Of a stretch of 64,000 nt of DNA, positions 12,002 through 20,800 are shown piece by piece. Origin of the DNA: Lachnospiraceae bacterium (GTDB taxonomy: Bacteria > Bacillota > Clostridia > Lachnospirales > Lachnospiraceae); contig JAAUZE010000008.1 of assembly GCA_014804755.1 (NCBI GenBank), positions 100,109 through 164,108 on the forward strand. The letters are read 5' to 3'. Numbering within the stretch: the first letter of the stretch is position 1; the number at the start of each line of letters is the position of its first letter. The position numbers and the translations under genes were made by a program. Below the pieces are notes generated by a model, which saw nothing but the letters and a program-made list of their open reading frames with translations, made no database searches and was not told the DNA's origin.

Positions 12002-12039
12002 AATGAGCCGTTGCCCGCCGTGGGTGGCGGCTCATTTTG
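12002..12039 (+). terminator. Rho-independent terminator
   Basis: AATGAGCCG...CGGCTCATT stem followed by TTGG. Confidence 0.6.
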
Positions 12040-12181
12040 GCAGTTTGATGAAAGATTAAGAAGCAAAGGTCAAAAATATTTTTTTTTGAAAAACGAGAGA
12101 AAGTTTTGCGGTTACAAATCGCAAAACGCATTGATTTTGAGAGAGAATAAGGGTATACTTTTCTTGGAGAGGGGTGATTAC

Positions 12182-13393
12182 ATGATAGATAGGCCAATGT
12201 ATATTGATAAAGTGATGGCGTATACGGATGCGCCTTTCGTTAAAATTCTTACGGGTGTCCGTCGATGCGGTAAGTCTACCATACTTAAAATGATCATGGA
12301 GAGGCTGCGCGATGAAAGAGCCATACCGGAAAGTCAGATCGTTAGTTATCGGTTCGATTCGATGGAATATGAAGACATGACTGCAAAGCAGATGTATGCA
12401 GAATTGAAAAGCAGACTCAGCACGAACGGGAGAACTTACTTTTTTTTGGATGAAATACAGGAAGTTTCGGGTTGGGAAAAGGTTGTCAATTCTTTGGTAT
12501 CGGATTTTGATGTGGATTTGTATGTTACCGGGTCAAATTCTAAAATGATGTCTTCAGAGATATCTACGTATCTAACGGGAAGATATATTGCTTTTCGAAT
12601 TTACACACTGTCTTTTCAGGAGTATTTGACATTCAAAGGTCAGCATACTCTGCTAAAAGATACGAGAACGGAACTGGCAGATTATATTCGGCGTGGTGGT
12701 TTTCCGGCCGTTCATCTTCAAGACTATAGTTTGGATGAAATAGATACGATTGTTCGCGACATCTATAATTCCACGATTTTTTCAGATATTGTAAGGCGGA
12801 ATCAGGTTCGCAAGATTGACCAATTAGAGCGCGTTGTGAAATATACATTCCATAATGTAGGAAATACATTCTCAGCAAAATCAATTTCAGACTATTTGAA
12901 GGCGGAGCGCAGGTCTTTGGATAATGAGACGGTATACAGTTATTTGGAGAAACTGGAAAAGGCTTATCTGCTACATCGTTGCTCACGTTATGATTTGCGG
13001 GGCAAGGAAATATTGAAAACACAGGAGAAATTTTATTTGGCAGATACGTCGCTTCGCTATAGTGTTTTGGGATATCAGGCTAATATGACAGCATCTAGTC
13101 TTGAAAATATCGTCTATTTGGAATTATGCCGCCGTGGATATACGGTATATATCGGAAAGACAGACGATGGGGAAGTGGACTTTGTCGCAGTTCGCCAGAA
13201 TGAGAAAGTTTACGTTCAGGTTACGCAGAAGATTGATTCGGAAAAGACAGAGGAGCGGGAATATAAACGGCTGTTGGAAATTCGGGACAATTATCCGAAA
13301 TATGTGTTGCGGACAGATGAATTTGCCGAGGGTAATTATGATGGAATTAAGACGATGCATGTGGCGGATTTTTTGTTAAGTCAGGAATACTAA
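12182..13393 (+). CDS. AAA-family ATPase with a DUF4143-type C-terminal domain
   Basis: Walker A is GVRRCGKST and Walker B-like is YFFLDEIQ. The C-terminal region is typical of the AAA_14/DUF4143 architecture. GGAGAGGGG precedes the ATG at 12182. Confidence 0.7.
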   Translation: MIDRPMYIDKVMAYTDAPFVKILTGVRRCGKSTILKMIMERLRDERAIPESQIVSYRFDSMEYEDMTAKQMYAELKSRLSTNGRTYFFLDEIQEVSGWEKVVNSLVSDFDVDLYVTGSNSKMMSSEISTYLTGRYIAFRIYTLSFQEYLTFKGQHTLLKDTRTELADYIRRGGFPAVHLQDYSLDEIDTIVRDIYNSTIFSDIVRRNQVRKIDQLERVVKYTFHNVGNTFSAKSISDYLKAERRSLDNETVYSYLEKLEKAYLLHRCSRYDLRGKEILKTQEKFYLADTSLRYSVLGYQANMTASSLENIVYLELCRRGYTVYIGKTDDGEVDFVAVRQNEKVYVQVTQKIDSEKTEEREYKRLLEIRDNYPKYVLRTDEFAEGNYDGIKTMHVADFLLSQEY

Positions 13394-13401
13394 TGCCTTG
13401 A

Positions 13402-14316
13402 ATGTGTAAAGGGATCATGTGGTTGGAGGAACTTATGAAAATCGGAGAAGTCAGTCTGCTGACAAATGATATAGCGGAAAGGAACATCCAATTGGACAGC
13501 AAAGACCTTATCCTATCAAAAGTCCATAAGCTGATGGCGGCATATCGGGACGGCCTGCTCGGCGGCGAAAGGCTGAAAGAATGCAATTCTTTCAACCACG
13601 AATCTGTACCGCATAGCACAAATTCACAGGCTGGAAAAGGGGCATGGATCATCAAGATGCCGGAACATGAGAACCCCGGTTTGGACAGGGCCTCGAAAGA
13701 GAACTACTTGTATTTTACGTTGCCGATGGCGTTGAATTATCAAAGAAATTCGTATGTTTTGTGGGAGTGCGCCAATCGGTTATACAAGAATGTGCCGGAG
13801 ATTTTTGACTGCGGACATGTATTGCGGATGGCGGAAGCCGATTTGAAAGATTTGCTGGTTCAATATAAGGTCGCATTGCAGCCGAATAAGCAGTCGGTCA
13901 TTTGGAAAACGCTCTGCGCCACGTTCCACGACAAATACGGTGGCGATGTACGGAGCTTTTTCTCGGCGATGAATTATGAAGTATCTGCCATAAAAGAATC
14001 CATAAGCAGGAATAAAAAAGCATTTCCTTATTTGGGCGGCAGTAAAATATGTAATTACTGGCTGTATGTGATGGAGCAGTACACCGATGCAAAATTTGTT
14101 GACCGCGAACATATTACTGTGGCGCCGGATACGCATGTCATCCAGGCGAGTGAGAAGCTGGGCGTGATCAGTGCGGAAGAGGCAAAAAGAGCAGATGTTC
14201 AGCAAATCGTTGCGGATAGATGGAATGAGCTGCTGCGCGGTACGGAATATGTTCCCATTGATATTCATACGCCGATGTGGCTGTGGAGCAGGGGGAAATT
14301 TAAAACAATATTGTAA
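13402..14316 (+). CDS. Hypothetical protein; possible HhH-GPD/endonuclease III-like fold (tentative)
   Basis: This is a long ORF with an uncertain start. The segment KICNYWLYVM...ITVAPDTHVIQASEKLGVI resembles the helix-hairpin-helix region of HhH-GPD proteins, but no catalytic motif was verified. Confidence 0.3.
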   Translation: MCKGIMWLEELMKIGEVSLLTNDIAERNIQLDSKDLILSKVHKLMAAYRDGLLGGERLKECNSFNHESVPHSTNSQAGKGAWIIKMPEHENPGLDRASKENYLYFTLPMALNYQRNSYVLWECANRLYKNVPEIFDCGHVLRMAEADLKDLLVQYKVALQPNKQSVIWKTLCATFHDKYGGDVRSFFSAMNYEVSAIKESISRNKKAFPYLGGSKICNYWLYVMEQYTDAKFVDREHITVAPDTHVIQASEKLGVISAEEAKRADVQQIVADRWNELLRGTEYVPIDIHTPMWLWSRGKFKTIL

Positions 14317-14393
14317 AGCAAAAGCTAAACAATTGCTTTACAAATACAGAACCGCGTGATAGAATGGAAGGGTAAAAAGAAGGAGCGGTAATT

Positions 14394-14654
14394 ATGGCAC
14401 AGGCAATGATTAATTTTCGGATGGATGAAGAATTAAAAAAGAATATGGAAGAAATTTGCAAAGATTTAGGATTAAGCATGACAACCGCATTTACTATTTT
14501 TGCAAAAAAAATGACAAGAGAAAAAAGAATTCCGTTTGATGTATCGTTAGATCCGTTTTATTCAGAAAGTAATATGTCATATTTGAAAAAGGTAGTAGAC
14601 GATATTGAATCAGGAAAATCGGTTCTTTCTGAGCATGAATTACTCGAGGATTAA
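14394..14654 (+). CDS. Type II antitoxin (RelB/DinJ-type N-terminus)
   Basis: INFRMDEELKKNMEEICKDLGLSMTTAFTIFAKKMTREKRIPF is a DinJ-like ribbon-helix-helix. It ends 3 nt before the YoeB gene. Confidence 0.8.
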   Translation: MAQAMINFRMDEELKKNMEEICKDLGLSMTTAFTIFAKKMTREKRIPFDVSLDPFYSESNMSYLKKVVDDIESGKSVLSEHELLED

Positions 14655-14657
14655 TGC

Positions 14658-14921
14658 ATGAAGATACTTTGGGAGGAGCGCGCCTGGGAAGAATACTTAG
14701 AGTGGCAGATACAAGACAAGAAAACATTAAAAAGGATTAATGCTCTCATCAAAGAGATACAAAGGAACTGCTACGAAGGGATTGGTAAGCCGGAACCATT
14801 AAAAAATAATTTAAGTGGGTGGTGGAGCAGGCGTATTGATGAAGTAAATCGAATTGTTTATAAAGAAAAAGATGGAGCGGTTATTATAGCATCATGCAAG
14901 GGACATTATGAGGATACATAA
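14658..14921 (+). CDS. yoeB: YoeB/Txe-family toxin (mRNA interferase)
   Basis: KILWEERAWEEYLEWQIQDKKTLKRINALIKEIQR...GIGKPEPLKNNLSGWWSRRIDEVNRIVY...HYED is a near-textbook YoeB sequence. Confidence 0.85.
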   Translation: MKILWEERAWEEYLEWQIQDKKTLKRINALIKEIQRNCYEGIGKPEPLKNNLSGWWSRRIDEVNRIVYKEKDGAVIIASCKGHYEDT

Positions 14922-14953
14922 TGTCCCTTGTTGCGGTATGAAGATCATTTGGG

Positions 14954-15820
14954 TTAGAAATTGTTGTGCCGCAAATAGCATCGAAACGCTTCCGCAACAT
15001 ATTCCGCAGAACCGGTGCCGTTTTTGGTGTCAAAAACGGATCTCAAATAGTCAGTGGAATAGAGATCGATGATCAGGCGGCAATAATTGGCCTGATCGCC
15101 GACCAATTCAGATGGGGCGTTTCCCTGTGCGCGGGCGATGATTTCCTGAACGATTTGCTGCACCTCATCTGAGGAAACGTCCTTTTCTTTATTGGCGGCC
15201 AATTTCACAAAAAGATCCTGCTTCATTTCTTCGGGGATTTCGGAAACCCATTTTTCCATGATCTCTGAAAAATGAGCCAGATTTTCTTTCATCGCCGCGG
15301 TATACGCTTCCATGCTGCCGAACTGTTTGATAGCAAGCTTTGCGACGTTCGGTTCGTCGTCCTTGATTTTTTGAATAAACAGATCATAATTCTCTACACT
15401 GCCCCAGTATTTGATCACCTCATTGGTATTGCGATTCTTGAACTCCTCCAACGCATGAATATAATCGGATAAGTCAAATTCCTTGAAACTCATACAGTTT
15501 TCTCCTTTCTCTAAACGGTCAAGGAGCTGTATCAGCCGGTCTGTGCGGTTGCGCTTTAACAGAAGCAGTTCTTTTTGCTTTTTGAAAGCAGCGATCCTGT
15601 CAAAATCGGGCTTCTCCAATATATCCCGGATATCCTTTAGCTTGAAACCTAATTCCTTGAAAAATAAGATCTGCTGTAATGTCTGTAACGCTTCATCATT
15701 GTACAGGCGGTAACCGGACGGCGTTGTTTCGCTTGGCTTGAGCAGTCCGATTTCGTCATAATACTGCAATGTGCGTACACTGACGTTGGTCAATTTCGCA
15801 ACTTGGCTTGTGGTCCGCAT
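14954..15820 (-). CDS. MerR-family transcriptional regulator with a TipAS-like C-terminal domain
   Basis: The HTH is MRTTSQVAKLTNVSVRTLQYYDEIGLLKPS. The start was moved to the ATG at 15820, which has a GGAG RBS. Confidence 0.8.
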   Translation of the reverse strand: MRTTSQVAKLTNVSVRTLQYYDEIGLLKPSETTPSGYRLYNDEALQTLQQILFFKELGFKLKDIRDILEKPDFDRIAAFKKQKELLLLKRNRTDRLIQLLDRLEKGENCMSFKEFDLSDYIHALEEFKNRNTNEVIKYWGSVENYDLFIQKIKDDEPNVAKLAIKQFGSMEAYTAAMKENLAHFSEIMEKWVSEIPEEMKQDLFVKLAANKEKDVSSDEVQQIVQEIIARAQGNAPSELVGDQANYCRLIIDLYSTDYLRSVFDTKNGTGSAEYVAEAFRCYLRHNNF

Positions 15821-15977
15821 GGGAATCAACTCCTTGCCGATCAGGATTGCGGAATGGTTTCGCAATCACTTGTGGGTTTATAGCCAATCAAAACAGGCTT
15901 AACATATCGTAGGAAGCAGGAAGGAACTGCCGGCCGGTATCATTACTGCTCTCCTGAAAAAAGAATACCGTATCACG

Positions 15978-16790
15978 TTACGTTGAAGTCAAGAGTTTTT
16001 TTGCCACAAAGAGAAAATGATTTGTCTTTCCAAGGTGCTCCGGTTTTTCACAATAAAAGAGGTGCAGTTTCAAATATTGCGCATATCCGGCATCATCAAG
16101 CTGATTGATTCGATCCTCCAATAATTCACTCATGCCGTCTGAGGCGATTTCGTGAATGATAGTAAGATCATTACGGGTGAGCATTTCACGACATTGATTT
16201 AGGTTAAAAAATACAAATGGGAAATTAACTGTTTTGAACGTTTCCCTATCATACTCACCGGTCAGAAGATAGTCCGGGTTATAGCCCCATTCCGTGTAGT
16301 GGAGCATGTCATTATTAATAAAAGCGACAAACAGGGTACCGTCTTTTTTCAACACTCGTTTCGCTTCCCTAATTGCTGTGTTCCGATCCTTTTCATCGTG
16401 CAAATGATAAAGCGGACCGAATAACAGGACAATATCAAACGTTTCATCGTCAAAATCGGATAGGTCGAGAGCGTTTCCCTGTCTGAGATCAATCGTAAGA
16501 CCGTCAGTTATCTTTTCACGGAAATCCGCCACGTTTTTATCCGCAAGTTCAACCGCATTCACGTGGTATCCCTTATTTGCAAAATAAAGACTGTACTCCC
16601 CGGCGCCTGCTCCGAGATCAAGAATTTTCATGCCCTGTTTTAGATATTTTTCAATATATGTGATCGTAGTCGTAAACTCAACTCTGGCTGCATTACTGCA
16701 GTTTAATCTGGATTTTTCATCAAAAAAATGGTAAACAGCATTCACGAGTTCCGCATCGTTCTTGATTTTTTTCAGTTCATTCAGATCCAT
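15978..16790 (-). CDS. Class I SAM-dependent methyltransferase
   Basis: ILDLGAGAGEYSLYFA (motif I) and FDIVLLFGPLYHL. Confidence 0.7.
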   Translation of the reverse strand: MDLNELKKIKNDAELVNAVYHFFDEKSRLNCSNAARVEFTTTITYIEKYLKQGMKILDLGAGAGEYSLYFANKGYHVNAVELADKNVADFREKITDGLTIDLRQGNALDLSDFDDETFDIVLLFGPLYHLHDEKDRNTAIREAKRVLKKDGTLFVAFINNDMLHYTEWGYNPDYLLTGEYDRETFKTVNFPFVFFNLNQCREMLTRNDLTIIHEIASDGMSELLEDRINQLDDAGYAQYLKLHLFYCEKPEHLGKTNHFLFVAKKLLTST

Positions 16791-16831
16791 TTTCGGTACC
16801 TATCTGAGTTGTTTTGGGGGTAATAGGAATG

Positions 16832-17248
16832 TTATTCTCTCCGAATAATCTTTCTCATACCGCAGCCGCAATATTCGTGCGGTATTTTTTTGAAACCGAG
16901 AGATTCGTAAAACGGTTCTTTTCCCGGCTCCGCAATGAGTTGAATACTTGACCTGCCGCCTGCGGGCGTGTGATCGGATACATAGGTTAACAGCATATTC
17001 AGAATGGTGGTGCCGATTTTTTGCTTTTGAAAATCAGGGCGCACGATGACATCCGCGATCAGATCATATTGTCCGTCGCCGATCAATCTGCCCATGGCGA
17101 TCGTTTCATTATGTTCAACCGCGGTTGCGATATACAGGCTGTTTCGGATCGCATTCTCTGATTGCTCCTTTGAAAAGTTGAGCCATCCGACACTTTCGCG
17201 CAGTTTCGCGTAGTCTTCATAAGATAAGGTATTTTCTTTGTATTCCAT
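16832..17248 (-). CDS. GNAT-family N-acetyltransferase
   Basis: RPDFQKQKIGTTILNMLL is the acetyl-CoA-binding motif A. The internal ATG at 17248 has an RBS, and the longer listed ORF adds an implausible N-terminus. Confidence 0.7.
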   Translation of the reverse strand: MEYKENTLSYEDYAKLRESVGWLNFSKEQSENAIRNSLYIATAVEHNETIAMGRLIGDGQYDLIADVIVRPDFQKQKIGTTILNMLLTYVSDHTPAGGRSSIQLIAEPGKEPFYESLGFKKIPHEYCGCGMRKIIRRE

Positions 17249-17255
17249 GCTGTGT

Positions 17256-17516
17256 TCATCCTTTCCGATTATTCGGGGTGAAAAAGCCCCAGACACAATT
17301 GCTGAATTCTCCGGCGGCAAATGTATGCTGCTGACCATGAATCTTAGCAGTATAAATAGGAAACTTGTATTCCTGACCGTATAAGGGGTCATGAACCGTT
17401 GCGGATTCATGGGTCGGTTTCCATTTGTACTTAAATATATTGACGCCAAATAGGTTTGTATCTCCATCGACACCGGTTACTTCATGCTGCCATGCTTGTT
17501 CTTTCGGGGATTCCAT
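17256..17516 (-). CDS. Hypothetical small protein
   Basis: RBS AAGGAAAGGA. It stops 7 nt before the GNAT start, so the two are probably co-transcribed. No motif was recognised. Confidence 0.4.
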   Translation of the reverse strand: MESPKEQAWQHEVTGVDGDTNLFGVNIFKYKWKPTHESATVHDPLYGQEYKFPIYTAKIHGQQHTFAAGEFSNCVWGFFTPNNRKG

Positions 17517-17713
17517 ATCGTCGGTTCCTTTCCTTGATAAGCCCTGTCAATCTGGTCTGTTTCATAAAATCATAGCATACTCGCGTTCATATTTCTATAA
17601 CAGTATTGATAAACTGGAATTTTCATGGTATTTGATCGTGAAAGAAATCAGATGGACAACCAGTGTGCGCAATTGCATAATGATTAAAAAACAAAAGAGG
17701 AGCGTGTCTGATT

Positions 17714-18640
17714 ATGAATACGTTACATTGTTGCATGAGGGAATATTTGGAATATTGTCATTATCGGAAGCGGTTGGATTCCAAGACATTGAAGGCTTAT
17801 CGTATTGACTTAAAACAGTATGAGGATTTTTGCGCCGGGGTATCTGATTGTTTTTCCCAAAATGCGGTGGACAATTTTATCACCTGTCTGCACAAACGGT
17901 ATAAGCCCAAAACGGTCAAGCGGAAGATCGCAAGCTTAAAAGCCTTTTTTCATTACATGGAATATAAAGAAATATTGCATGAAAATCCGTTCGTAAAGCT
18001 GGACGTCCGTTTTCGGGAAGCGAAGCTCTTGCCTAAGACCATTCCGTTTCATTCGATACAGGCATTTCTCTCTGCCATCTACACACAAAAAGAACAGGCA
18101 AAATCAGAATATCAGCGGCGATGCTGCGTCAGAGATATTGCCGTGATGGAGTTATTGTTTGCGACAGGAATGCGGATATCGGAGTTGTGTTCGTTAAAAC
18201 CCGCGGATATAGACCTTGAGAGCAATAACATTTTGATATACGGAAAAGGTGCAAAAGAGCGGATGATCCAGCTTGGTAATCGGGAGGTAATCGCTGCGTT
18301 GGTACAGTATCGGGAGACATTTAGAGAGGACATAGAGGTTTGCGGGTATTTTTTTGTGAATCGGTTACAGCATAAGCTATCCGATCAGTCGGTCCGTTTT
18401 ATGATCAATCACTATGCGGAGCTTGCGGGCATCACGCAGCACATCACGCCGCATATGTTCCGGCATTCTTTTGCCACACTTTTATTGGAGCAGGACGTCG
18501 ATATCCGCTATATTCAAAGGATGCTTGGGCACAGCTCCATTAGCACGACGGAGATTTATACGCATGTGTCGAACGCAAAGCAGAAGGATATTTTGGTGCG
18601 CAAGCATCCGAGGAATTTGATGGAGGTGAATGGAGGATAA
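17714..18640 (+). CDS. Tyrosine site-specific recombinase (XerC/D-integrase family)
   Basis: N-terminal SAM-like core-binding domain (FCAGV...KPKTVKRKIASLKAFFHYM). Catalytic signatures are ATGMRISEL (Arg), HMFRHSFATLLL (HxxR) and LGHSSISTTEIYTHV (Tyr). The last 7 nt of the CDS, through the stop codon at 18638-18640, lie inside the left inverted repeat. Confidence 0.9.
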   Translation: MNTLHCCMREYLEYCHYRKRLDSKTLKAYRIDLKQYEDFCAGVSDCFSQNAVDNFITCLHKRYKPKTVKRKIASLKAFFHYMEYKEILHENPFVKLDVRFREAKLLPKTIPFHSIQAFLSAIYTQKEQAKSEYQRRCCVRDIAVMELLFATGMRISELCSLKPADIDLESNNILIYGKGAKERMIQLGNREVIAALVQYRETFREDIEVCGYFFVNRLQHKLSDQSVRFMINHYAELAGITQHITPHMFRHSFATLLLEQDVDIRYIQRMLGHSSISTTEIYTHVSNAKQKDILVRKHPRNLMEVNGG

Positions 18641-18700
18641 TAAGAAATTATCTATTGAATAATGATTTGTATATTGTGAAAAACACCAATTTATCGGAGG
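18634..18700. repeat. Left 67-bp inverted repeat (IRL) of the candidate invertible cassette
   Basis: AGGATAATAAGAAATTATCTATTGAATAATGATTTGTATATTGTGAAAAACACCAATTTATCGGAGG is the exact reverse complement of 20587-20653 (67/67, checked base by base). Confidence 0.95.
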
Positions 18701-18705
18701 TTGAT

Positions 18706-19383
18706 ATGCATGTTCCTAAAGACGCTATTTTAATGCTATCTGGAGTATCATGTGTTGGAAAAACAACTGCAGCGTATGAGATAGTGAAGAATTATCCTGA
18801 ATTTAGAAGAGTAAGTGAATATGATTTGCTGAGAACAGTTGTGCGAACCGCATATGAATGTTTGGCTGAAGAAGCTTATATAGACAAGGATGAATTAATA
18901 AGTAAATATCATGCGTTGTTTGAGTCTATTACAAATAGCAATTTTGAAATTACCAAGTTACAGTCAGAACAATTACTTCCCTACGTTAAGGAGATAATTC
19001 TCAGACAACAAAGGCGACGGATACCAACTATAATAGAAGGTACTGGTATTATACCAAGCGCATATTTTCCTAATAATCAGCCATTAGCATGGTTATCAAA
19101 ACACGTAGTATTTATTAATCTATATATCTCTGACGAGGAAGATCACATTTCCCGAAGACAATCGCGTTCGGAGGAACGTGATTATCATGAATCGGCCAGT
19201 AAAACAGAAATAATTATTTCCCAATCTAGAGCAGGAAAAAATCAGTTATTACATATGCAGGCAATTAAGTTGCAGCAAAAATTTAAAAATGTGTTTAGCT
19301 TGGATGTTTCAAATTATACTCCAAGTCATATGGCAAGCAAAATAATGGAACTTGTTTTTGATTATTTTGATACCTATAACTAA
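18706..19383 (+). CDS. P-loop NTPase/kinase-like protein; function unknown
   Basis: Walker A is LSGVSCVGKTTAAYE. The ATG at 18706 lies 5 nt after the GGAGG that ends IRL. The listed TTG start at 18655 lies inside the repeat. Confidence 0.6.
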   Translation: MHVPKDAILMLSGVSCVGKTTAAYEIVKNYPEFRRVSEYDLLRTVVRTAYECLAEEAYIDKDELISKYHALFESITNSNFEITKLQSEQLLPYVKEIILRQQRRRIPTIIEGTGIIPSAYFPNNQPLAWLSKHVVFINLYISDEEDHISRRQSRSEERDYHESASKTEIIISQSRAGKNQLLHMQAIKLQQKFKNVFSLDVSNYTPSHMASKIMELVFDYFDTYN

Positions 19384-19392
19384 CAATATGAC

Positions 19393-20580
19393 TTATATAT
19401 CGTACAATTCGTTGTAGAGCTTTTCGGTCAAGGGAACCGCTTGTTCCCATACGTTTAAAAATGTATCATAAAGATGTTTTCCACGGCTTTGTATATCATT
19501 TTCGGAAATTTCTATTATTTCAAATGAAGAATTAGTAATTTGGAGAGGGTATCCTTCGCTGTCACATATTATTGGACTATAAAGCACGGCGTTATCACTT
19601 ATGATTATAGATTCTTTGCGTGGGCATTTGTATAGCCTAATCATTTCGCTTATAGGCAAGTGAAATCTATTTTGCATCCTAACAGCCGCTTCCAAACAGG
19701 TTTGTAAATCTGCTAAGAATCTCCTCTCTTTGTCTTTGCTTACAGCTTTGGTCATAGCTTCGCTTTTTGGATGTGGAAATAGACATTTAAAATCCACCCC
19801 ATTATTTATTCCTTCAATGGCTAGATACTTAAAAAAATCATCATTTTCACCTGTAAATATTTTTTTATTCCTTCTGCCATAAAACCATAAACGTTTGCCT
19901 TGATAATCAATTACATTTCGAATAAGTATTTTCGTAAGAACGCTGGTTGAAAATCCTTTATGAAAAAGAATATGCTCCTTGGTTATTTCAGGACTAACTA
20001 TTGTGAAATTTCCATGGTTGTCCTTCATAATTTGCTCAACCAAATCTCTGCAAGTGTCGGGAATCATTTGTTCACGTTGCAAGATCATTTTAACTTCTTT
20101 TATATATGCATTCCAGTGACTATTGAAGTTTTTGATATCTGTATTAGAATCTTTTGCCAATTCTTGTAAAAAACGTTTGAATTCCTCTCGTGATTTCTTA
20201 AAATTATCATTTTCATTATTTAAACGTATAGGGACATAACGATTTAGAGGTTTATCTACCCATGATGACCAATCGGGAATATGTTCAAATAATATTGGTA
20301 TAACTATACTTCCTCCTGGCTCTGCAAAATGTGCACCATACACTACACCTGCTTCATACATTAACCAAGGATTCTTAAAATTATCTGATGTTATACAAAC
20401 GATACATTTATCACTTCTCAAAAGATTATTATGTATTTCATTATCAACGGATGTCCCTTTATACATATCGGGAGAAAAAAACACTTCAATTTTATTTTCT
20501 AATGTATTCAAGATGAATTTTTTTGTTTCTAATGCTAATAATTTACTTTTATCTTTTGACCAGCTAATAAATATTTCCAC
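19393..20580 (-). CDS. TIR-domain protein with an uncharacterised C-terminal domain of about 250 aa
   Basis: The N-terminus IFISWSKDKSKLLALETKKFIL...VFFSPDMYKGTSVDNEIHNNL...CIVCITSDNFKNPWLMYEAG matches the bacterial TIR pattern (FISWS...S.DI..G......L.....I.......S.W...EAG), including the conserved Glu. The GTG start lies 6 nt after the GGAGG that ends IRR. Confidence 0.7.
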   Translation of the reverse strand: MEIFISWSKDKSKLLALETKKFILNTLENKIEVFFSPDMYKGTSVDNEIHNNLLRSDKCIVCITSDNFKNPWLMYEAGVVYGAHFAEPGGSIVIPILFEHIPDWSSWVDKPLNRYVPIRLNNENDNFKKSREEFKRFLQELAKDSNTDIKNFNSHWNAYIKEVKMILQREQMIPDTCRDLVEQIMKDNHGNFTIVSPEITKEHILFHKGFSTSVLTKILIRNVIDYQGKRLWFYGRRNKKIFTGENDDFFKYLAIEGINNGVDFKCLFPHPKSEAMTKAVSKDKERRFLADLQTCLEAAVRMQNRFHLPISEMIRLYKCPRKESIIISDNAVLYSPIICDSEGYPLQITNSSFEIIEISENDIQSRGKHLYDTFLNVWEQAVPLTEKLYNELYDI

Positions 20581-20586
20581 TTTGTT

Positions 20587-20653
20587 CCTCCGATAAATTG
20601 GTGTTTTTCACAATATACAAATCATTATTCAATAGATAATTTCTTATTATCCT
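20587..20653. repeat. Right 67-bp inverted repeat (IRR)
   Basis: Exact reverse complement of 18634-18700. Confidence 0.95.
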
Positions 20654-20771
20654 TTATCTTTAGAAACTACATCAACAGATACCGTTGAATACTTATTCGT
20701 CCAGCCCGTCAGACGACCTTTTATTACCCAATAACAAATGATCCAGTAGCATCCCATCTACCTAATTTTGT

Positions 20772-20800
20772 ATTGTACTACACGATTGTGCGTATTTCAA
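20772..20800 (-). promoter_or_regulatory. Putative sigma-70-type promoter firing leftward into IRR
   Basis: The minus strand reads TTGAAA, a 17-nt spacer, then TACAAT (plus strand ATTGTA at 20772-20777 and TTTCAA at 20795-20800). It lies about 120 nt outside IRR. Confidence 0.4.

Follow-up and report, generated by a model that had tools for sequence, protein, structure and literature searches.

What does a tyrosine recombinase do beside two unrelated genes that point at each other between perfect inverted repeats, and where would those two genes obtain their transcription? The question is raised by a 64,000-nt stretch of Lachnospiraceae bacterium DNA (assembly GCA_014804755.1, contig JAAUZE010000008.1, positions 100,109–164,108, forward strand), which we refer to at its full length as the window and in whose positions all coordinates are given unless another locus is named. 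Here, the gene of a Xer-like recombinase is followed by a cassette of about 2 kb in which a gene for a P-loop protein of kinase fold and a gene for a TIR-domain protein converge tail to tail. An original prediction, made from the letters of the window alone, proposed that inversion of this cassette would exchange the promoters of the two genes and that transcription of each would interfere with the other. We favour, at a probability of roughly 0.6, a closely related reading: an invertible cassette of promoterless TIR and kinase-like genes that is driven from its flanks, damped by antisense transcription and flipped by the adjacent recombinase.

Cassette anatomy and inversion at the core site in relatives

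The recombinase gene (17714–18640, plus strand) encodes a 308-aa Xer-like tyrosine recombinase, the presumed invertase, with matches to Pfam Phage_integrase (8e-42), to XerD in the PDB (3e-34) and to the NCBIfam XerD model (3e-73, under its equivalog cut-off), and with the catalytic set R154, H247, R250, H273 and Y282, read from the motifs ATGMR, HMFRH, LGHSS and EIYTH. Its last codons and stop codon (18638–18640) fall within both the left inverted repeat (IRL, 18634–18700, plus strand) and the core site described below. The right inverted repeat (IRR, 20587–20653, minus strand) is, like IRL, 67 nt long, and the two arms are 100% complementary. At the outer end of each arm is a core palindrome with an asymmetric spacer, GGATAAT-AAGAA-ATTATCT at 18635–18653 (plus strand) and its complement at 20635–20653, that is, inverted at the two cassette ends. 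A search of the window with the core pattern returned 5 matches where 0.21 were expected. Within the P-loop gene, the minus strand at 18780–18797 carries a third core-like sequence that departs from the pattern by one mismatch (GGATAATTCTTCACTATC); we do not regard it as a real core, as it is probably a chance match and the DNA there is not conserved in relatives.

The inner ends of both arms are GGAGG ribosome-binding sites (18696–18700 and 20587–20591), 5–6 nt before the ATG of one gene and the GTG of the other, and an identical repeat-encoded leader with its GGAGG thus precedes each of the two cassette genes. The P-loop gene (18706–19383, plus strand; 225 aa) opens with ATG at 18706–18708 and closes with TAA at 19381–19383; the TIR gene (19393–20580, minus strand; 395 aa) opens with GTG at 20578–20580 and closes with TAA at 19395–19393. 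The same difference in start codons behind an identical GGAGG is seen in two related loci, L005 and L007, and the GTG start could hold translation of the TIR protein lower. Cassette GC content is about 0.31, against 0.43–0.50 in the flanks. An RNA element in the shared leader was considered and dropped, since Rfam gave no match at E up to 1 and the folds of the leader have z-scores of about 0.

Several lines of evidence from relatives bear on whether the segment inverts. Among the genome and metagenome loci that we fetched (designated by L numbers), the repeats range from 18 to 113 nt and share GGATAAT-N5-ATTATCC at the outer end, and in each of four related lineages identical flanks enclose the cassette in either orientation, the breakpoints mapping to the repeats. 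First, loci L046, L047 and L050 differ from L048 and L049 by a switch at the 21-nt AAGGATAATTCTTTATTATCC, with the flanks aligning reversed and the cassette direct; the repeat of L046 and L048 consists of nothing beyond this 21-nt core palindrome. Second, L036 and L038 differ from L037, L039 and L040 by a switch at a 27-nt repeat between flanks that are 100% identical. Third, L054, L055 and L058 differ from L057 by a switch inside a 73-nt repeat; this is the closest lineage to the window that shows both orientations, with a recombinase 83% identical and cassette DNA 85.5% identical to those of the window. Fourth, L034 and L035, whose TIR proteins are 91% identical, have three core-like sites nested together, and the divergence between the two loci sets in at the outermost one. 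Because the breakpoints in all four lineages map to it, we take the palindrome with its asymmetric 5-nt spacer to be the crossover site. By this comparison, window positions 18634–20653 appear to form a real invertible unit, the expression of which is predicted to depend on transcription from outside.

These observations also bear on a static account of the locus, in which the repeats are a duplicated regulatory leader, the convergent genes form a fixed defence pair, and the recombinase gene, although adjacent, has nothing to do with them. That the inner part of the repeat supplies both genes with identical leaders and ribosome-binding sites is what such an account would expect. It is already contradicted, however, by the inversion breakpoints at the repeats in four lineages, and it sits poorly with a shortest repeat that is the 21-nt core palindrome alone and with a tyrosine recombinase that adjoins the cassette in most lineages with long enough contigs (the fetched flanks of L005, to 5 kb, and those of L017 and L019 showed none). 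We regard this account as very improbable indeed.

The cassette is also conserved as a unit: very many of the 94 TIR and 95 P-loop homologue clusters lie on contigs of about 1.9–2.05 kb, the size of the cassette, as expected if short-k assemblies break at flanking inverted repeats. Two further kinds of observation were not counted. The assembly break at the repeats in SRR11425437 was dropped as evidence of inversion, because a 67-nt repeat breaks any k=31 assembly. The numbers of assemblies in either orientation, which derive from consensus assemblies, were dropped as a pointer to the ON side, being inconsistent across lineages.

Predicted transcription into the cassette and across its junction

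The relatives with short repeats leave little room for promoters before the start codons: the 27-nt repeat of L036/L037 ends 4 nt short of the TIR ATG, and in L046 the start codons follow the core site at a distance of 40–50 nt. Promoters would therefore lie outside the invertible segment and, by this anatomy, the predicted state of the cassette genes must be promoterless, with transcription entering from the flanks. The window agrees, as no inward promoter-like site with at least 9 of 12 consensus matches lies wholly within either repeat arm, and we reject a promoter inside the repeat for now. The original prediction, which had found no convincing promoter inside the repeats and had each gene transcribed from the flank that it faces, is supported on both points, the second by the 4–50 nt of room in relatives and by the two-sided read-in of the L054/L007 lineage described below.

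On the left of the window, read-through from the recombinase gene had been named as the only evident source of transcription. The sole plus-strand promoter-like site 5′ of the P-loop gene is TGGACA-17-CATAAT (17653–17681; 10/12, by consensus match only), which lies 5′ of the recombinase gene, and no terminator lies between the recombinase stop codon (18638–18640) and the P-loop ATG at 18706. This putative left input is structurally sound for the window, but it does not generalize: the recombinase gene faces away from the cassette in four lineages and is followed by a terminator in L046.

On the right, the leftward promoter that had been proposed, TTGAAA-17-TACAAT, is indeed present in the sequence (20772–20800, minus strand; 10/12), but a match of this quality is at chance level. 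The predicted exchange of drive is supported in one part, both orientations being found in four lineages, and not in the other, the right-hand promoter itself. Between this site and IRR lies a weak terminator-like hairpin (20672–20688, minus strand; 7 pairs, 3 of them G-C). A further, hybrid site, TTGATG-18-GATAAT (20646–20675, minus strand; 9/12), would use the GATAAT of the core site as its −10 element; a −35 element with at least 4 of 6 matches at the right spacing is present only in the right flank of the window and the far flank of L007, and the hybrid promoter was rejected as a family feature. Promoter-like sites in the region number 20, against 16.4 ± 3.5 in shuffles, and promoter calls in AT-rich Clostridia DNA are weak; the external promoters and their relative strength are what we infer.

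The flanks of relatives show how differently the cassette can be placed. In the L054/L007 lineage, genes on both flanks point into the cassette and end within the repeat, namely the recombinase gene and the last gene of an operon for TIR-STALD, thymidylate kinase, 5-hmdU DNA kinase and a thymidylate-synthase-like protein. In L036/L037, an operon for ThsB and PNP-STALD reads in and ends 25 nt from the repeat without a hairpin, and on the other side an IS3 element faces away, behind a hairpin. By eye, hairpins also stand 3′ of the recombinase gene in L006 and L015 (the one in L015 being GC-rich), and an extended −10 element, TGaTATAAT, lies 13 nt outside the far repeat of L015. In that locus (L015 4928–4964), the repeat is itself palindromic; its stem measures 17 bp, a T run comes next on the outward strand, and the scan flagged the repeat as a terminator for transcripts that exit the cassette. 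We dropped a conserved external expression site as an explanation, the flanks of the window having no homologue in other loci, and the cassette behaves, as far as its sequence context suggests, as a promoterless plug-in.

The junction between the genes is conserved where the flanks are not. As originally described, the two stop codons of the window are nine bases apart (caatatgac, 19384–19392) and no hairpin separates them: the terminator scan was negative there, and RNA folds of 41–91 nt on both strands resemble shuffles (z-scores −0.26 to +0.45). Stop-to-stop gaps lie between −12 and +12 nt in 16 of the 19 distinct junctions of the family, and only one of the 19 (L019, z −2.7) shows significant structure. 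The pair is convergent in all fetched loci with a single exception, the P0121 lineage, which has the P-loop gene without a TIR gene. Because this terminator-free junction is conserved, read-through of each gene as antisense RNA of its partner is to be expected, and the proposal that transcription of one gene runs antisense through the other is retained as an expectation of the same kind.

A strict either/or version, with a single expression site like that of the phage Mu G segment or the Mycoplasma vpma loci, would have one flank promoter active, the facing gene ON and the other OFF under antisense, and the TIR and kinase proteins never present together. Consistent with it, the junction is conserved without a terminator, the right-flank promoter match of the window is at chance level, the recombinase side of L046 is blocked by a strong terminator, and L036/L037 has the ThsB TIR/PNP-STALD operon on one side and only the outward-facing IS3 element behind its hairpin on the other. 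We nonetheless hold it to be rather unlikely: the L054/L007 lineage has read-in genes at both flanks, and the TIR and P-loop genes are co-inherited and diverge in step, which is easier to understand if the proteins work together part of the time.

In the reading that we favour, with flank-driven genes and antisense damping, the recombinase (17714–18640) would recombine the two inverted GGATAAT-N5-ATTATCY cores and so flip the 2-kb segment. RNA polymerase arriving from the facing flank would be the only source of transcription for each gene, and the incoming transcript would continue as antisense RNA over the partner gene and damp it. In the present orientation of the window, the kinase-like gene would be co-transcribed with the recombinase gene, with the TIR gene facing the AT-rich right flank; inversion would exchange these flank connections. 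A population could thus hold cells biased to either gene, and a mixture of TIR-biased and kinase-biased cells would amount to phase variation of a probable NAD-consuming effector. The originally proposed shift in the P-loop/TIR expression ratio is a candidate outcome beside a true either/or choice, and the suggested toxin/antidote arrangement is a speculative one.

Several observations weigh against this reading. Concerning inversion, the strain of the window has one resolved assembly only, so that inversion there rests on homology; a look-up of the right-flank gene for the opposite orientation in the same species returned the source contig alone. Further, one species shows the recombinase-to-kinase orientation in 10 of the 10 assemblies shown, for which reason switching may be rare or biased, or may be under selection. 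Concerning transcription, an inward match of at least 10/12 arises in 10.6% of cases when the 354-nt right flank is shuffled (P about 0.11), and the weak hairpin (20688–20672, minus strand) stands in the path from TTGAAA-17-TACAAT to IRR. A strong intrinsic terminator follows the recombinase gene in L046, and the source of transcription therefore differs between lineages. The flanks are lineage-specific, and no homologue of either window flank occurs in a related locus. Finally, the right arm of the long inverted repeat in L074, a locus with a related recombinase, follows the 3′ end of a gene; long repeats are therefore not simply shared leaders.

Other cargo and possible cassette exchange

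The recombinase family extends well beyond the TIR cassette, with at least 120 clusters of recombinases at least 83% identical and roughly 30 clusters of TIR proteins at least 75% identical. One such recombinase, 84% identical, flips a different 4.6-kb segment (L074 5912–10517, compared with L077) between 86-nt perfect repeats that open with GGTGAATGGAGGATAAT...ATTATTCC, the same core type as in the window. This segment encodes a 340-aa protein of unknown function, a polyprenyl synthetase, a 369-aa protein of unknown function and an FAD-dependent oxidoreductase, and its two orientations occur in different samples. In another comparison, of L088 with L091, about 5.5 kb with Fer4, ApbE, FMN_red and CMD genes, next to a recombinase 83% identical to that of the window, is present in some assemblies and missing from one. 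The far flank keeps its orientation, and this difference is an insertion or excision rather than an inversion.

Different cargo also appears at the very site of the window cassette. In a sister strain (L082–L086), the recombinase is 95% identical and the DNA of the left flank (window 13462–18641) is 91–95% identical, and the homology breaks off exactly where the left core arm finishes, at 18641; the spacer that follows is TCCTG, and the cargo is another one. L085 and L086 share one sequence as far as the core and differ from there on. By eye, the cargo of the sister strain resembles an ATP-grasp/Ddl-type enzyme, although the 103-aa fragment gave no Pfam match. This comparison suggests replacement of a cassette at the core site. 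Conversely, L006 carries cassette proteins 92–93% identical to those of the window beside a recombinase that is only 46% identical. Tandem nests of two or three core-like sites occur at the cassette ends in L005 (4882–4994 and 6881–6993), L034 (3840–3960) and L035 (130–250), for example GGATAAT-TGAAA-GTTATCC followed by GGATAAT-AAGAA-ATTATCC, an arrangement that suggests the capture of one cassette, together with its sites, in the socket of another. Together, the low GC content of the cassette, the nested core sites and the mismatch in L006 point to cassette exchange at core sites.

Exchange could in principle be all that the recombinase is for, with inversion a by-product of cassette capture and the expression of the cargo independent of orientation, as in recombinase-mediated cassette exchange. 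Everything that points to exchange would fit: the different spacer and cargo beyond 18641 next to a 95% identical recombinase, the L006 combination, the nested core sites in L005 and L034/L035, the GC contrast of about 0.31 with 0.43–0.50, and the excess of recombinase clusters (at least 120) over TIR clusters (roughly 30). Against it, both orientations persist in four lineages, and the genes appear to be promoterless, so that orientation must alter their drive; moreover, exchange and phase variation are compatible with each other. We therefore consider it improbable that inversion is a by-product only, less so than the static account given above, and keep to the favoured reading of a flank-driven switch.

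The proteins, their neighbours and known switches

The cargo of the window joins two unrelated proteins. The 225-aa P-loop protein has weak matches to Pfam AAA_33, AAA_18 and AAA_17, and its AlphaFold2 model (pLDDT 93.7) has CMP, TMP, adenylate, shikimate and gluconate kinases as its best Foldseek matches in the PDB; by this model, its fold is that of a nucleotide or small-molecule kinase. Invariant residues are G13, G18, K19, T20, D40, R100, R150, R154 and R158, Walker A being among them, and R150, R154 and R158 are taken to be lid arginines. The closest named family is 2-phosphoglycerate kinase, with a score far under the cut-off of that family. The 395-aa partner has an N-terminal TIR domain and a C-terminal PLD-like fold and is a probable NAD-consuming immune effector; PADLOC recognizes its TIR part only and has no model for the pair. 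The two proteins diverge in step, TIR and P-loop identities in relatives being 92/93, 89/83, 64/54, 55/40 and 33/29%. Relatives of the TIR protein were not found in viral contigs, plasmids or phages, and an origin in mobile elements was dropped as an explanation. Cultured carriers of the cassette are Petralouisia muris NM01_1-7b and Lachnospiraceae bacterium 47-T17.

Genes of known defence systems adjoin the cassette in several relatives: ThsB with PNP-STALD in the P0032 lineage (L036 5463–7478); TIR-STALD with thymidylate kinase, 5-hmdU DNA kinase and a thymidylate-synthase-like gene in the P0103 lineage (L054 1–3423); a gene for a TIR-SLOG protein that reads toward the cassette in L006 (7196–9509); and the CBASS gene Cap15 in L011 (6924–7535). 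A defence role of the cassette is a reasonable prediction. Tentatively, and with some doubt, we extend the favoured reading to a broader one, in which Xer-like recombinases of gut Clostridia, with their stop codon in their own site, flip and exchange entire promoterless cassettes at a fixed chromosomal socket, and in which the TIR/kinase cassette would be a binary immune-state switch, the TIR protein armed in one state and the kinase counteracting or resetting it in the other, enforced by antisense transcription and often placed downstream of Thoeris-like TIR/SLOG operons.

Outside the cassette family proper, the P-loop homologue of the P0121 lineage (L064–L073; 75% identical) occurs without TIR gene, repeats or recombinase. 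It sits between two DUF4116 repeat proteins near rpoB, and 9 of these 10 contigs begin within about 450 nt upstream of it. In the window itself, a RelB/YoeB toxin–antitoxin pair lies at 14394–14921, 3 kb 5′ of the recombinase gene, and an AAA_14/DUF4143 ATPase gene at 12011–13393.

In layout, the closest known system is the G segment of phage Mu, in which, as in the Cin and Pin systems of P1 and e14, an invertible segment carries alternative gene sets that converge and the invertase gene lies directly beyond the segment, one set being read in each orientation of the Mu segment. What the cassette shares with it is the pair of convergent alternatives and the position of the invertase gene. Gin, however, is an enhancer-dependent serine invertase, and the genes that it exchanges are tail-fibre paralogues joined to a constant part, whereas the cassette has complete genes, non-homologous cargo and a tyrosine recombinase, the last of which rules out membership of the Gin/Hin family (mentioned in PMC9881135 and PMC12529663).

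In mechanism, the closest systems are the vpma, vsp and vsa loci of Mycoplasma (Xer1, HvsR) and mba/UU376 of Ureaplasma, where Xer-type inversions join silent promoterless genes to an outside promoter (PMC3047005) and where, as here, a Xer-type recombinase lies beside the locus. Those loci encode surface lipoprotein variants that serve antigenic variation, with several silent genes, often fused to a fixed 5′ coding part. The cassette, by contrast, holds exactly two complete, unrelated genes for cytoplasmic enzymes, tail to tail without a terminator. A single fixed outside promoter drives the vpma type; the flanks of the cassette family vary between lineages, with read-in genes on both sides in L054/L007 and one side blocked in L036/L037 and L046. 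Further, the alternatives in the vpma and Mu types belong to one protein family, and those of the cassette are a TIR and PLD-like protein and a kinase-fold protein. Unlike both types, the cassette has the stop codon of the enzyme within the enzyme's own site, and a junction without a terminator.

Promoter invertons, such as fimS of Escherichia coli (FimB/E) and those of flgB, cwpV and pdcB in Clostridioides difficile (RecV) (PMC5386303, PMC2784873), likewise depend on a tyrosine recombinase acting on short inverted repeats and give reversible ON/OFF heterogeneity. They flip a promoter or leader of a few hundred base pairs in front of fixed genes; here, the genes would flip between fixed promoters. 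The fimS type was ruled out because two complete genes lie inside the segment and the repeats hold no inward promoter-like site. The hsdS invertons of type I restriction–modification systems, among them those of Streptococcus pneumoniae with PsrA/CreX, are phase-variable defence loci (PMC7672463, PMC7096588) and also have a Xer-like invertase next to the locus; their inversions reshuffle halves of the specificity gene within the coding sequence, whereas in the cassette whole genes would exchange places at the expression position.

Among TIR systems, the cassette differs from SpbK of Bacillus subtilis, a defence effector of one protein, and from ThsB of Thoeris in having no SLOG or Macro effector and in having a kinase-fold partner. 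Thoeris was ruled out for the window, where a TIR protein is present without a ThsA carrying SLOG or Macro; STALD and SLOG occur only in the flanks of relatives. An integron was ruled out as well: the integron-integrase models reach 112 and 80 bits, below their respective cut-offs of 265 and 435, and an integron is built of attI and attC sites, whereas the cassette has simple inverted palindromes at both ends. A type II toxin–antitoxin system is ruled out by the convergent order of the genes and their lengths of 225 and 395 aa, and comparisons with Pfam, PADLOC and NCBIfam gave no match of either gene to a toxin–antitoxin family. Full-text literature searches turned up no publication in which an inverton is connected with a TIR protein. 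The type of switch is known, and its cargo is new.

Restriction–modification systems are a well-known case of phage defence under phase variation. A flip between TIR and kinase genes, if true, would mean that a costly defence is carried by only part of the population. Surveys designed for short promoter invertons or for inversions within genes may miss inversions of whole genes such as this one. Of broader importance is that members of this recombinase family flip other multi-kilobase cassettes and that a sister strain carries another cassette in the same socket.

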